A model generated the notes under the pieces. That model was given only the letters and a program-made list of their open reading frames with translations, made no database searches and was not told the origin of the DNA. From the IMG/VR virus record IMGVR_UViG_2529293249_000005: a DNA stretch of 14,532 nt; one strand, written 5' to 3'. Shown piece by piece: positions 4,411-10,210 of the stretch (position 1 is the stretch's first letter; each line of letters opens with the position of its first letter). The stretch is from a virus. Its lineage: Duplodnaviria; Heunggongvirae; Uroviricota; Caudoviricetes. Position numbers and translations under genes: made by a program.

Positions 4411-4817
4411 TCGTACCTCCTGTCGGTAAATCTGACACCCTGACCAATAGCCCATGCTGTCGTGTACTCAATCAGACTTGCCATACGCTTCACGCTCATC
4501 TGCGCGCTACTTTCGCGAATGTTGACGTATTCGCCTTCAAGCCCGGGCAAAACATCAGCTTCCTGCTTTGTAGCCACTGCATGACCGCTGATCAACAAAA
4601 CCTTCCATTGTTCCGGTTTTAACCATTTGTCGCGCCACTGAACTTGCCTAGCGATATCTGCGACCATCGCGTGAAATTTTGCGTTCTGGTCAAGGTTGCG
4701 CTTGTAGTCAGTAATGCGGATGGTGACTGGCTTGTCTTTATCGAGTGGTGTTGCGAGGATGGCATTTATTGCAGCTTGCTGTTGTTGCTTAGTTCGGAGG
4801 AAGATTGTTTGCTTCAT
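4407..4817 (-). CDS. ninB: NinB / Orf-family recombination mediator
   Basis: Track ORF 4407..4865; start at Met17 (ATG at 4817) preceded by AGGAG. Contains ...[22 protein letters not shown]..., the conserved core I recall from lambda NinB (RSLDQNRKLW...SRQVEW). Confidence 0.8.
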
Positions 4818-4819
4818 CG

Positions 4820-5137
4820 TTACTCCTTCACTTTGACTCCAACAGCGCGAATCCGTCCTTCGCATTCACTAATTGCGTCGTTATAACCAAATGTGACCCC
4901 ATCCTCGAAATCGGTAGAAAATGCCTCACGCTCTCTTTTTCCAGGACACTCAATCTCGATAGCTGCTCGCGATGCCTGCCACGTTTGCCAGTGGCCTTGA
5001 ACATCGTCCATCACGTATTGACCACCAATATCACCACTGCCAATTTCATGGTGATTTTCAGGGTAACGGATAAGGTCTGAAGATTCGCCTCCACGTCGCA
5101 ACCAACTTTCTTCAAACTGCTTTCTTGATTCGTCCAT
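4820..5137 (-). CDS. Hypothetical protein (acidic, 105 aa)
   Basis: 105-aa ORF with GAGGG about 9 nt upstream of the ATG at 5137. Its stop is followed immediately by the ninB ribosome-binding site. No family recognised. Confidence 0.55.
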   Translation of the reverse strand: MDESRKQFEESWLRRGGESSDLIRYPENHHEIGSGDIGGQYVMDDVQGHWQTWQASRAAIEIECPGKREREAFSTDFEDGVTFGYNDAISECEGRIRAVGVKVKE

Positions 5138-5154
5138 CGATACTTACCCTCAGT

Positions 5155-5361
5155 TCAACTCACAAAACGCCACGCCATTTTTGCTACAGCGACAGGCATA
5201 ACACCGATAATCACCCAGACAAATGCAGCGCCAAACAACGTATACCATGGATCTTTACCGTCATTCACAAGGCGAATGTAGCTATGCAGAACAATAAAAA
5301 ACGTCAGAAGAATCCATCCAACGCCAACGCATTTGAGTGCGACGAGCATAAACTCAGCCAC
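5155..5361 (-). CDS. Small membrane protein (two predicted transmembrane helices)
   Basis: 68-aa ORF with a GTG start at 5361 and GGAG 8 nt upstream. Two hydrophobic stretches (VALKCVGVGWILLTFFIVL and LFGAAFVWVIIGVMPVAV). First gene after the tR2-like terminator. Confidence 0.45.
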   Translation of the reverse strand: MAEFMLVALKCVGVGWILLTFFIVLHSYIRLVNDGKDPWYTLFGAAFVWVIIGVMPVAVAKMAWRFVS

Positions 5362-5376
5362 GATTTACTCTCCCCC

Positions 5377-5408
5377 AAATAAAAAGGCCTGCGATTACCA
5401 GCAGGCCT
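5377..5408 (-). terminator. Intrinsic terminator after the replication genes (tR2-like)
   Basis: On the minus strand: AGGCCTGC-tggtaatc-GCAGGCCT perfect 8-bp stem (plus 5385..5408) followed by TTTTTATTT. The plus strand has no T-run, so it is unidirectional. Confidence 0.65.
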
Positions 5409-5437
5409 GTTATTAGCTCAGTGATGTAGATGGTCAT

Positions 5438-7318
5438 TTAATACTCCGTCACGTTTTCCTGTCGCCACGCCTCGTCATATTCCGATTTCGGCATATTGGC
5501 GATGTAGCTATATGGCGATCCTGATTCAAGTTGCAGGAACTGGTGCGATTGCTCGTCAAGGAACAACGGGACACCACCTTCCCAACCTTCGCCGTTACGT
5601 TGTTTTTCAAGCATCAAAACAGATGCCGGAGATGCCAGTAGCTGTTCGTCCTTCTCTGACATCTTTTCACCACTCTGAACTCTCTGTAACGCTCTCTCGC
5701 GAGCCTTGTTACGCCAGATGATGAAAAGGTTGTCTGTCAGGTCTGTTATCGCTCCAGAGCCTTTTACGTCCATTTTCCCGGTTGGTTTTTCTTCGCTATC
5801 TCCTTTTCTGGAGTGAGTAACGAGAATGACGTGGGAGTTTGTTTTGTTTTTGAAGTCACAAATCGAGTCAACAAATGCTTTCTGCCCGTTATAGTCATCG
5901 TCACCTATGCCGCATTTCATCAGGCTGTCGATGATGAATAACTGGATGCCGTATCGGCGGCGAGCGTAGTCGAATATTTCGATCAGCCTGTCGGCTTTCG
6001 CCGTTCCGGTCAGGCCAAACACCCAAAGTCTTTCGTCATAAAATTTAAATGCAGAGTCAATTTCCAGCACTGGCGGCATCTTGCAGCACGTCGCCTGACG
6101 GGTAAGGCGCTTAAGGAGAATACCAGGCTTCAGCTCAAGTGACGCGATGCACGTCTTCACACCCTGACGCATTGCCTCAAGTGCCATATGCCCGACAACC
6201 TCCGTTTTTCCGTGACCGTTCACACCATTGACCAGCGTCAACTCTGCCTCACGGAACTGGAATTTATCTGCCAGAGATTCCCACGGTGGATTAAACAGAT
6301 ACTGCTGCTTGCCGTAGAAAGCGTTGATAGTGTCCTGGTAAAACTCTCGCGCACTGTAGAGTTCTTCAGGATCGAAGTAGGATGCCGTGCCGATGTACTG
6401 CCAGATTTCATCCTCGGTAACACCGTTCATCAGGCATTCGTTGATGTCTTTGTACGGCAGAGTAACAAGACGGCAACGATGTTCACCGAGTCGGCTTGCG
6501 ATTTCCCTTGCGGCTTCACGACCAACATCATCAACGTCCATCGAGATGAATATTTCCTCAAACCTGTCGAGGTTGTGATACTCAAACTCAATCCACTGTT
6601 GCTTAGCGCCTTTCCCGCCACCAAACGGCACGGATAACGCCGAGATGCCGTATTGCGCATAGCTCATACAATCAATTTCGCCTTCGCAAAGTACAACCGC
6701 CCTCACGCCAGCGTCCAGAGCCTGCCATCCAAACAGACAAGGTTCGCAATCACCTTCTGCCATAATGACTTTCTTCCCGTCCGGTCGCTCAGTGCTGATT
6801 CGCTTGACCTGCAACAACTCACCATCGCGTTTGTACGGAAGCACCAGTGCATCAAGTTCTCGTTCTCCATTCCACACCTTGCCGCTGACAACCTCGTAGC
6901 GCTTTACGACTTCTGGCGATATGCCACGCGATTGCAGGTACTCAAGATGGGATTCTGTTCTGGTAACGTAGCGGGCGATTTTCTTGCGGTCAGGTCTGGA
7001 GAATTTCTTCTCACGTTTGGCATCGAAATGGTGATCGTCATCCTTGATTCCGAGAAAGGCTTTCGCTTCCTGCATAGCCTGATGCAGGTTAATTCCACGA
7101 CATGCCATCCACAAATCAAGCATGTCACCGCCGTCTCCCTCAGCGAAATCAGCCCATTTTTTCTTGCCGCTAAGGTTGACCTTAAGGCTGTTTCCCTTGT
7201 CACCGTTGACGTTACCGGCAACCCACTCATGCCCCTCTTTCTTGCCGTTTGGCAACAGGTGCGGAGCCACCCTGTCAACCTGCGCCCAAAGCAGGTCACT
7301 GAGTTCACTTGGAGTCAT
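5438..7318 (-). CDS. Bifunctional replication protein: toprim primase fused to DnaB/RepA-family helicase (T7 gp4-like architecture)
   Basis: 626-aa ORF. Toprim signatures (VVLCEGEIDCMSYAQYG, ISMDVDDVG), then Walker A (LVNGVNGHGKTEVV) and Walker B (QLFIIDSLMKCG). GAGGG precedes the ATG at 7318. Occupies the lambda P position but is not P. Confidence 0.8.
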   Translation of the reverse strand: MTPSELSDLLWAQVDRVAPHLLPNGKKEGHEWVAGNVNGDKGNSLKVNLSGKKKWADFAEGDGGDMLDLWMACRGINLHQAMQEAKAFLGIKDDDHHFDAKREKKFSRPDRKKIARYVTRTESHLEYLQSRGISPEVVKRYEVVSGKVWNGERELDALVLPYKRDGELLQVKRISTERPDGKKVIMAEGDCEPCLFGWQALDAGVRAVVLCEGEIDCMSYAQYGISALSVPFGGGKGAKQQWIEFEYHNLDRFEEIFISMDVDDVGREAAREIASRLGEHRCRLVTLPYKDINECLMNGVTEDEIWQYIGTASYFDPEELYSAREFYQDTINAFYGKQQYLFNPPWESLADKFQFREAELTLVNGVNGHGKTEVVGHMALEAMRQGVKTCIASLELKPGILLKRLTRQATCCKMPPVLEIDSAFKFYDERLWVFGLTGTAKADRLIEIFDYARRRYGIQLFIIDSLMKCGIGDDDYNGQKAFVDSICDFKNKTNSHVILVTHSRKGDSEEKPTGKMDVKGSGAITDLTDNLFIIWRNKARERALQRVQSGEKMSEKDEQLLASPASVLMLEKQRNGEGWEGGVPLFLDEQSHQFLQLESGSPYSYIANMPKSEYDEAWRQENVTEY

Positions 7319-7422
7319 GATTCCCTCAGATTGAGATTTTTAAACCAGAAATCGACAAACGAAATACTTAACCAGCCGTGGTTATAACCAGCGACCAGTA
7401 GCGATTTGATTTTTGATTTCAT
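7315..7422 (-). CDS. Small ORF (35 aa) bridging the O-like gene and the primase-helicase
   Basis: Hand translation: MKSKIKSLLVAGYNHGWLSISFVDFWFKNLNLRES. ATG at 7422 lies 3 nt after the O-like stop, with AGGTGA upstream. Its TGA stop overlaps the primase-helicase ATG (ATGA). Fills the gap exactly. Confidence 0.35.
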   Translation of the reverse strand: MKSKIKSLLVAGYNHGWLSISFVDFWFKNLNLRES

Positions 7423-7425
7423 GGT

Positions 7426-8286
7426 TCACCTGTCGAAAAACACGTAGCCAGTTTTCGATACGGTGATTGCGGATGATGGTTTGGATTGTGGTTGAATAGT
7501 TTCTGGCTTCTCGTCGTTCCAGCGCTGACCGTTCAGGTAGCTCGATGGTAACAACCTGTCGAATCCGAACTGCTTACCATTCCTGCATGCGATGTCTTCT
7601 GCTAGCATCGTGGCAAACTCGCTTGCCGTACCCCTGGTAGTTTTACGCCATTCCCTGAACTGTGTTCTGAATGCCGAAGCTGCGTTTTTCTTCCCGGCTT
7701 TCCGCATGCCTGCACACCAGAATATTTCCTCGAATGCCTTGTCGGTTTCTTCGTGACGGTCAGGTGATTTTTCACACTCCGTCCGAACACTTTCGGACAT
7801 AGTGTTTTTATTATTTCTTTTTTCTTTTGTAATAGTTTCTTTTGTGTGTCCCTGTTTTGGTGACAGCGCTGTCACCGTTTTGGTGACACTTTTTGTCACC
7901 AATGCAGTGACATTATCACCAGAGTAGTGACACCCTTCGATTTGCCATTCCTCGATGTTCTTGTTAGGCCCGATTTGCTGGCCTTCGCGAAGGATAACCT
8001 TCATCGCGATAAGCTCATTCTTGGCCTTGTTTACCTTCTGTCTTGGCAGCCTGGTAATTTGAGCTAACTGACTATCAGAGATGCGATCCATCTTTTTACC
8101 GTAGCCGTATGTTTTACGGCATATGGCGTGGGCAACCTTGCTCTGATTTTTCGTTAAATCTGCGCCGATAAGCTCTTCATACAGGGCATTTGCAAGACGG
8201 GTATAACCATCTTCAACTTCTGCCACACGACGCTCCACAGGCCGTTGTGAAGGCCTTAAATGTGTTACGGTTGCAAGATTACTCAT
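7426..8286 (-). CDS. Replication initiator, lambda O-like N-terminal domain with a non-lambda C-terminal domain
   Basis: 286-aa ORF. N-terminal third (...[60 protein letters not shown]...GPNKNIEEW) parallels the lambda O N-domain as I recall it. C-terminal half is unrelated to lambda O. AAGGAG precedes the ATG at 8286. Confidence 0.8.
7800..7935. repeat. Putative replication origin inside the O-like gene: iteron array plus AT-rich region
   Basis: GGTGACA / TGTCACC units recur at about 7859, 7882, 7906 and 7927 (roughly 21-24 bp spacing), including an 18-bp perfect palindrome GGTGACAGCGCTGTCACC (7859..7876). AT-rich stretch 7800..7850 follows. Same arrangement as ori-lambda inside O. Confidence 0.65.
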
Positions 8287-8433
8287 GACCTTTCTCCTTC
8301 TGCATCAGCTTCACTTTTTCCAACTCAGCCCGGAATCGACCAGGCTGCTTGAAGCTGGACAGGAAGCGATCACGTAGTATGTGTTTGTGAATTTTGTCCT
8401 GGTAAGGACTGAGTTGTTTTGTCATAATGACTC

Positions 8434-8502
8434 CTGTGGATTGATCCAGTCTTTCTACATCAGGCCTCGAAGAATTCGCCGTTCTTCGGGGCTTTTTCTT
8501 TT
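8434..8502 (+). ncRNA. Putative oop-like antisense RNA ending inside the cII 3' end
   Basis: Plus-strand CATAAT at 8422..8427, then a 9-bp stem hairpin (8466..8490) followed by a T-run (8493..8502). That gives a ~70-nt transcript antisense to the cII 3' end, as for lambda oop. The 5' end is inferred. Confidence 0.35.
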
Positions 8503-8741
8503 GTCAGGTAATCGGCAAGCCGCTTAGTCAATTCAGCCATTTCATCGTCTTCGATTCCGTATTCCAGAACAGCAAGCATCATGCTTACCTGCGAGAAGAA
8601 ACCATTCTTCCATCGGCTTACCTGATATTCAGGAACCCCCATTGCTCGAGCGAATGTCTTCTGCCCCATCAGTGCCAGTTTGTTCAGCAAGGCCGACTCG
8701 ATGCGAGCCGCTTTCTTGCTTTTAGTTGCAATAGTACCCAT
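8460..8741 (-). CDS. cII: CII transcriptional activator (lysogeny establishment)
   Basis: 93-aa [33 protein letters not shown]...VSRWK...[17 protein letters not shown], clearly homologous to lambda CII ([16 protein letters not shown]...ISRWKR...LLAVLEWGVVDDDMARL). Coordinates taken from the ORF track. Confidence 0.85.

Positions 8742-8857: not shown

Positions 8858-10210
<1,353 letters not shown>

Follow-up and report, generated by a model that had tools for sequence, protein, structure and literature searches.

A probable ES18-type replication module in a lambdoid prophage: an O-like initiator with an in-gene origin beside a T7 gp4-type primase-helicase

How does a lambdoid phage begin replication when its initiator resembles lambda O in its N-terminal part only and no gene for P follows it? 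This is the question raised by positions 5438-8286 of the IMG/VR record IMGVR_UViG_2529293249_000005 (Caudoviricetes), of which a stretch of 14,532 nt (the window) was analysed. Lambda takes the host DnaB through P and uses the host DnaG. The window covers the early part of a prophage of the lambdoid, P22-like/lambda-like kind, and its early-right operon, on the minus strand, encodes one after another a replication initiator, a protein of 35 residues and a primase-helicase; the minus strand given here for the initiator and primase-helicase open reading frames (ORFs) corrects an earlier description. Very probably these form an ES18-type three-gene replication module, composed of an O-like initiator that carries the origin inside its own gene, an adaptor C-terminal domain and the phage's own primase-helicase of the T7 gp4 type.

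The likeness of the initiator to lambda O is confined to its N-terminal part. An earlier note on this DNA, made from the letters alone, had proposed a lambda O-like DNA-binding N-terminal domain, and this is borne out: Pfam Phage_rep_O matches residues 20-114 (E 1.2e-37, 128.8 bits, cut-off 28.7), TIGR01610 (phage_O_Nterm) matches with E 1.7e-30 (105 bits, cut-off 45.5) and BLASTP aligns lambda O with residues 1-157 only, at 49% identity. The corresponding O-like domain of P22 gp18 is 45% identical to that of the window. By analogy, the N-terminal domain would bind iterons, and a candidate array lies within the initiator gene. The same note had read the half-sites GGTGACA and TGTCACC and the number of units, four, correctly and their register wrongly; since the true register is that of four 19-bp dyad units, TGTCACC-N5-GGTGACA, the array starts at 7847, not at 7859 (Table 1). 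The spacing of the half-sites is constant (12 nt), and the unit starts lie a variable 23, 24 and 20 nt apart. When up to three mismatches are allowed, the window contains six dyad matches against 0.56 expected, a number reached in none of 200 shuffles, and four of the six cluster at 7847-7932. In number, unit length and place in the gene the repeats equal the four lambda iterons annotated in NC_001416.

Along the initiator gene, in the direction of transcription, the iterons are followed by an AT-rich stretch and then by a palindrome, and the layout of iterons and then AT-rich DNA is the same in the lambda record. AT-rich DNA had been placed at 7800..7850 by the earlier note; A+T content is indeed 83% at 7806-7846, with the GC content dropping to 17.5% at 7800-7839, and this stretch is presumed from its sequence to be the DNA-unwinding element. 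Directly past it, the palindrome folds as a single-stranded DNA hairpin with -11.9 kcal/mol (z = -6.4; none of 200 shuffles folds equally well). It is kept in ES18, altered in the Stx2a phage F451 by one compensatory base-pair change and one mismatch, and may serve the origin or reflect a constraint on coding.

The repeats are in frame and encode a peptide repeat, and their origin role is a prediction; they might be mere coding repeats, specifying a repeated V-T peptide linker, with the true origin elsewhere. This is very improbable. At one and the same site in the gene, each type of N-terminal domain has dyad repeats of its own (those of lambda in ES18, GGGGCAGGAGCTGCCCC in F451 and TGTCACC-N5-GGTGACA in the window), neither dyad symmetry at the DNA level nor a fixed 12-nt half-site spacing is required of a peptide repeat, and the repeats run into the strongly AT-rich stretch as they do in ori-lambda.

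The remainder of the initiator is not lambda O, as had also been claimed. BLASTP against lambda O finds nothing past residue 157, and in hhalign comparisons the C-domain family scores a probability of 0.1% with the C-domain of lambda O and likewise with that of P22 gp18, its profile being so shallow (Neff 1.9) that a very remote homology is possible. The C-terminal domain, which matches phrog_33384, consists of a conserved core at about residues 182-259 (7510-7743) followed by a conserved 15-residue tail. Pfam searches at E up to 1 return no matches for this domain, for the first 190 residues of the primase-helicase or for the 35-residue ORF. An AlphaFold model of the C-domain, based on a 12-sequence alignment, has a pLDDT of 58, with a three-helix core at 63-82. 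Two large homologue searches with the C-domain returned nearly exclusively near-identical E. coli and Salmonella proteins of little diversity; they also showed two N-domain fusions, with PF04492 and PF13730.

In place of a P-type helicase loader, the earlier note had expected downstream a 626-residue Toprim primase fused to a DnaB-family helicase. No loader is found: tblastn detects no lambda P, P22 gp12 or DnaC-like gene in the window (all E > 0.2; best E 0.25 for lambda P and 1.9 for P22-type gp12), and the window has no ren gene, no alternative helicase or loader (P, DnaB-like or DnaC-like) and no DNA polymerase gene, the primase-helicase being encoded by a temperate phage. The Toprim domain, the hexameric helicase and the length of the fusion stand as described, but the helicase part belongs, by its sequence, to the T7 gp4/Twinkle branch of RecA-type hexameric helicases and not to DnaB proper. 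The domain searches that had been proposed for both proteins find, besides Phage_rep_O, Toprim_2 (E 3.1e-12) and AAA_25 (28.0 bits, just over the cut-off of 27) in the primase-helicase; DnaB_C, at 23.8 bits, stays under its cut-off of 27. The protein further matches phrog_239, 'DNA primase/helicase' (E 1.9e-171) and Twinkle (E 6e-14), and structures of T7 gp4 (5ikn, 6n7i, 1q57) align over residues 191-539 with E ~5e-23; identity to T7 gp4 is 25-26% over residues 195-538. Aligned with T7 gp4 are the primase motifs EGEID, DxD and KDxNE and the helicase motifs, namely Walker A GHGKT (GxGK[ST]), the catalytic Glu, Walker B IIDS, His and the Arg finger, and these catalytic-motif columns hardly vary when the protein is aligned with 59 relatives that are 35-54% identical. 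A primase-helicase of the P4 alpha or D5 type (SF3) was considered and rejected, as the helicase part aligns with T7 gp4 and Twinkle (SF4).

The window protein shares with T7 gp4 and Twinkle the order of a zinc-binding-domain fold, a Toprim primase and a RecA-type hexameric helicase. It differs from T7 gp4 in that its N-terminal domain is devoid of zinc ligands and its gene adjoins that of an origin-binding initiator, whereas T7 initiation is driven by transcription by T7 RNA polymerase. The assignment of the N-terminal domain comes from a TIGR01391 (dnaG) match at residues 26-143 and from an AlphaFold model of residues 1-100 (pLDDT 92), which Foldseek matches to the DnaG zinc-binding domain (1d0q_A, TMt 0.65, rmsd 3.3 Å) and to Aquifex DnaG (2au3, E 1.4e-6). 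The Cys4 ligand set is absent: residues 1-190 contain one Cys, and two CxxC/H motifs are found in none of 103 full-length representatives (50%-identity clusters) of the family, which was taken as 2742 clusters at E < 0.001. In place of the ligands the family shares a conserved N-terminal motif, W-DFA-G-GD-LDLW.

The zinc-binding domain of T7 gp4 is needed for template-directed priming, and a gp4 form without it makes no template-directed primers; primase activity is therefore not assured for a protein predicted to have kept the fold and lost the ligands. Metazoan Twinkle, a relative, has lost both the zinc ligands and primase activity. The 626-residue protein might accordingly be a replicative helicase only, with a primase part that is inactive or has another role and with host DnaG still needed, in the manner of P22, whose gp12 works with host DnaG (PMC8022706). 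We regard this as unlikely. The acidic Toprim residues are intact and nearly invariant even in distant relatives, and the zinc-less domain is itself strongly conserved and predicted at high confidence to take the DnaG fold, which together argue for selection on a working primase. Toprim primases without a zinc finger, such as RP4 TraC, are moreover active.

In the Stx2a phages F451, phi24B and Min27 the primase-helicase has 968 residues and includes a 342-residue intein with Hint and LAGLIDADG homing endonuclease domains. The intein site is in the Walker A loop, between K and T of GHGKT (window 6207/6208), and the F451 copy lies at ~6646-7671 (locus L087; also present in loci L050 and L055). 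The primase-helicase of the window is free of the intein.

The type of the large downstream gene had thus been recognised, but the short ORF between it and the initiator had been overlooked, together with the palindrome. This ORF, with the sequence MKSKIKSLLVAGYNHGWLSISFVDFWFKNLNLRES, begins 3 nt past the initiator stop codon and overlaps the start codon of the primase-helicase (ATGA), so that it appears to be translationally coupled to both neighbours. It matches phrog_21848 (E 1.1e-24), and 34 of its 35 residues are identical (97%) to those of ES18 gp60. It occurs in 44 phage records, and wherever its context was inspected it sits between the initiator and the primase-helicase; alleles with 71% (Stx2a phages, epsilon34) and ~49% identity (Fraca, CharmingMan) retain its length and frame. 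Because of the match to gp60 and phrog_21848, the recurrence and the preservation of length and frame in divergent alleles, we take it to be a real gene. The ORF is unannotated in many related phage records. In some IMG/VR copies of the module, ~490 bp are inserted between it and the primase-helicase (~4500-4990 in locus L010; also in L013, L028, L034 and L075), and within the insert lies an ORF of ~160 residues that resembles HNH-type homing endonucleases.

The earlier note implied that this arrangement was new, which it is not: the module, identified from its sequence in 2005 and listed by name in phage annotation libraries, is a known and ordinary one. In the GenBank record of ES18 (AY736146, deposited with Casjens et al. 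2005), on whose annotation our comparison rests, gp59 is described as similar to lambda gpO with an internal origin 'similar to lambda ori', gp60 is of unknown function and gp61 is a 'putative primase/helicase; similar to phage T7 gene 4'. The order and spacing of ES18 genes 59, 60 and 61 are those of the window, as is the position of the annotated origin inside the initiator gene; the C-domain is 95% and the primase-helicase 94% identical (over 626 residues), and the DNA is 88% identical from window position 7859 to 5434. ES18 differs in its iterons, which are of the lambda type (ATCCCTCAAAACGAGGGA), the N-domain of the window being 48-49% identical to those of lambda O and ES18. The three features by which the ES18 type is recognised, a phrog_33384 C-domain, a phrog_21848 gene and a phrog_239 primase-helicase, are all present in the window.

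The ES18-type module also occurs in epsilon34, g341c, vB_SosS_Oslo and the Anderson typing phages STMP5/17. The replication genes of epsilon34 have been reported to match those of ES18, with only the N-terminal region of the initiator resembling lambda gpO (PMC2629481), and a paper on the Anderson typing phages distinguishes three types of replication module in P22-like phages, the ES18 type among them (PMC10307801). Among Stx phages it is this primase-helicase that marks out the 'Eru5' type (Fagerlund et al. 2022, PMC8951638), in which the first gene upstream of cI codes for an HTH_36 protein and the second for the primase; according to that paper, nothing is known of the replication proteins of Eru phages. 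Closer still to the window are mEp043 and Sf101 (99.2-99.3% identical over 98% of 5300-8400), vB_EcoP-720R6 (98.2% over all of that interval) and SEN22 (91.7%), and the module proteins of mEp043 are 100% identical to those of the window. These four phages and E. coli prophages show no material difference from the window module; most records of the mEp043 group have no annotation for the 35-residue ORF, and no origin is marked in the annotations shown. That the window is a degraded prophage remnant was rejected: the ORFs are intact and identical to those of the isolated phage mEp043, and the catalytic residues are conserved. In all, the module is present in 298 of 5426 complete E. coli genomes (~5%) and in 208 IMG/VR loci.

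Two further systems are similar in part. Lambda O and ori-lambda share with the window the Phage_rep_O N-domain, four 19-bp dyad iterons within the gene, the AT-rich stretch and the place in the operon after cII, whereas the C-domain is unrelated and P (with ren) stands where the window has the 35-residue gene and the primase-helicase. P22 genes 18 and 12 likewise combine an O-like N-domain with a helicase of the phage's own instead of a P-type loader, but gp12 is of the DnaB type, lacks a primase domain and has no detectable similarity in the window, and the C-domain of gp18 is unrelated.

The replication module swap that the earlier note had proposed finds good support in natural recombinants. 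The IMG/VR loci returned (80) all have the same module, and co-variation was assessed on GenBank phages instead. Lambda, PhiR12_4, ES18 and the window form a two-by-two set: lambda has lambda-type N-domain, iterons and C-domain, followed by P; PhiR12_4 has the window-type N-domain and iterons with the lambda O C-domain, P and ren; ES18 has the lambda-type N-domain and iterons with the window-type C-domain, gp60 and primase-helicase; and the window has the TGTCACC-N5-GGTGACA iterons with the phrog_33384-type C-domain, the 35-residue ORF and the primase-helicase. Residues 1-157 of the PhiR12_4 O protein are 100% identical to the window initiator (DNA 99.8% identical from 8450 down to 7814), its C-terminal half is 100% identical to residues 156-299 of lambda O and its P is 97% identical to lambda P. 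The N-domain of ES18 is, in turn, 93.5% identical to lambda O.

Further N-domains are joined to the same downstream set. Eru5 Stx phages (Stx2a_F403/F451, phi24B, Min27) share the C-domain (96% identity), the 35-residue ORF and the primase-helicase with the window, and their DNA is 96-98.6% identical to it from 7810 onward, the exact position at which identity begins in Stx2a_F451; they differ in an HTH_36 N-domain with its own repeats, where the window has Phage_rep_O, and in the intein. In Fraca and CharmingMan, a phrog_1701 DnaD-like N-domain precedes a set that has diverged from that of the window to 52-55% (C-domain), ~49% (35-residue ORF) and 60% identity (primase-helicase). The C-domain is thus fused to four types of N-domain, followed each time by the 35-residue ORF and the primase-helicase. 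Two HTH_36-type initiators with the same C-domain, P0083 and P0061, differ in the number of GGAGADR peptide repeats, probably reflecting a variable iteron copy number in an in-gene origin.

Both breakpoints, 7810 and 7814, fall inside the AT-rich stretch. Wherever an N-domain goes, its own iterons go with it, and in the two-by-two set with lambda the C-domain always travels with its partner system; the palindrome goes with the C-domain/helicase half. Compared by sequence, one exchangeable unit is therefore composed of the N-domain and the iterons and the other of the C-domain, the palindrome, the 35-residue gene and the primase-helicase. In lambda O and P, the N-domain reads the origin and the C-domain contacts P to recruit the helicase system, and the observed pattern is as expected if the same division of labour applies here. 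The C-domain would then act as an adaptor to the primase-helicase.

Besides the doubt over priming, several observations weigh against this interpretation. The link between C-domain and helicase is correlative, and the literature searched contains no biochemical or genetic test of the module. Foldseek finds no match in the PDB for the poor C-domain model (best E 2.6). Relatives of the C-domain core (37-44% identity) precede a DnaC-like loader in Pseudomonas phage Skulduggery, and others in the Vibrio phages D68 and PVA1 have no recognisable helicase gene downstream; conversely, Vibrio phage 1.239.O has a primase-helicase of 60% identity downstream of a DnaD-like initiator, with no such C-domain and no 35-residue ORF. 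Since these contexts differ, the fold of the C-domain core is not exclusive to the primase-helicase; a specific contact may reside in the conserved C-domain tail or be made via the 35-residue protein. In 1.239.O, GenBank annotates 'CRISPR spacers' in gene 47, two genes upstream of the primase-helicase (locus L092, 849-914), which may be other direct repeats, possibly iterons.

The C-domain might hence not be a specific adaptor at all: the helicase would load itself, as T7 gp4 can, on melted AT-rich DNA or on an R-loop produced by transcription, the C-domain would do a general job such as oligomerisation, single-stranded DNA binding or contact with a host factor, and co-inheritance would reflect linkage. 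T7 gp4 is not known to need a loader, and the adjacency of the C-domain, the 35-residue ORF and the helicase would by linkage alone favour their joint transfer; the Skulduggery, D68, PVA1 and 1.239.O contexts fit this explanation as well. We nevertheless give it rather little credence. Two independent recombinants have their junctions inside the same 5 bp (7810-7814), precisely where the N-domain/iteron half meets the C-domain, and similarity to ES18 DNA picks up again at 7859, at that same boundary of the array. The type of C-domain matches the type of partner throughout the two-by-two set, in parallel with the rule for the lambda O C-domain and P, and Fraca and CharmingMan show a joint divergence, to 50-60%, of the C-domain, the 35-residue ORF and the helicase.

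In the proposed model for the ES18-type module, the N-domain of the initiator would bind the four in-gene iterons to form an O-some-like complex, which would strain or open the adjacent 41-bp AT-rich stretch, both steps by homology to lambda O. The C-domain, directly or through the 35-residue protein, would recruit the phage primase-helicase rather than a P-DnaB complex, and the primase-helicase would assemble on the opened DNA, unwind it and probably prime for host DNA polymerase III; these later steps are proposed because the domains are co-inherited and the catalytic motifs conserved. Independence from host DnaB and DnaG, as predicted by the earlier note, is plausible, independence from DnaC would go with it, and an effect of the module on sensitivity to host-targeting replication defences, which the note also raised, is speculation. 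A bolder version of the model, which we offer tentatively and consider rather doubtful, is that the C-domain and the 35-residue protein constitute a portable loading adaptor able to couple any origin-binding domain, of which four types are seen, to a primase-helicase with zinc-free priming, that the 35-residue protein is a helicase-loading cofactor and that prophages with this set, including the Eru5 Stx2a prophages, would be independent of host DnaB, DnaC and DnaG.

Table 1. Coordinates of the replication module, its origin elements and neighbouring features in the window.
Feature	Position	Strand	Basis or remark
Replication initiator, 286 aa	7426-8286	minus	ORF; N-domain, iteron-encoded linker and non-lambda C-domain
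Origin-binding N-terminal domain (predicted), aa 1-115	7942-8286	minus	Phage_rep_O; Pfam and TIGR01610 matches
Initiator C-terminal domain, aa 158-286	7429-7815	minus	phrog_33384, E 1.7e-88
Iteron array (predicted), four 19-bp dyad units	7847-7932		TGTCACC-N5-GGTGACA
Iteron 1	7847-7865		2 mismatches
Iteron 2	7870-7888		0 mismatches
Iteron 3	7894-7912		1 mismatch
Iteron 4	7914-7932		2 mismatches
AT-rich stretch, 41 bp	7806-7846		83% A+T (window 53%); the coding strand is the A-rich one
Palindrome, 14-nt arms, 4-nt loop	7774-7805		Inverted repeat search; directly past the AT-rich stretch
35-aa ORF	7315-7422	minus	Between initiator and primase-helicase
Primase-helicase, 626 aa	5438-7318	minus	T7 gp4/Twinkle type
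DnaG zinc-binding-domain fold without zinc ligands (predicted), aa 1-100	7019-7318	minus	TIGR01391, AlphaFold, Foldseek
Toprim catalytic core, aa 209-296	6431-6694	minus	EGEID, DvD, KDinE; Toprim_2 and T7 gp4 alignment
RecA-like hexameric-helicase domain, aa 355-594	5537-6256	minus	AAA_25, DnaB_C, T7 gp4 alignment
Intrinsic-terminator-like hairpin and T-run	5385-5408	minus	30 nt past the primase-helicase stop; consensus match only
DUF2740 gene, 48 aa	8279-8425	minus	Overlaps the initiator start codon
cII-like activator	8460-8741	minus	Early-right operon
cI-type repressor	9177-9809	plus	

The surroundings of the module are those of a lambdoid early region (Table 1). A cro-like gene lies between the cI-type repressor and cII-like genes, and past the primase-helicase, in the direction of the operon, follow the terminator-like hairpin, NinB and other nin genes, Q and holin; N and an Erf/Abc2 recombination region are found on the opposite side of the window. 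The hairpin has a G+C-rich 8-bp stem with six G-C pairs, followed by TTTTATTT, and is likely, as judged from its sequence, the terminator of the early-right operon ahead of the nin genes. At 8462-8494 the plus strand has a strong terminator-like hairpin of 14 pairs, with a T-run, in antisense orientation to the cII-like gene at its 3' end, where lambda has its oop RNA terminator; an Rfam scan of the whole window found no family at threshold, including none for this hairpin. The DUF2740 gene next to the initiator is labelled 'tail protein' by PHROGs and RefSeq, which is implausible at such a position. It moves with the N-domain half, identity to PhiR12_4 starting at 8450.

As a discovery, the finding is of small value, the module being common in prophages of E. 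coli, Shigella and Salmonella. Lambda, PhiR12_4, ES18 and the window nevertheless provide a ready-made natural set for asking where in an O-type initiator the choice of origin and the choice of helicase system are made. The same C-domain, 35-residue gene and primase-helicase drive the replication of clinically relevant Stx2a (Eru5) phages, in which the rate of replication affects toxin output.

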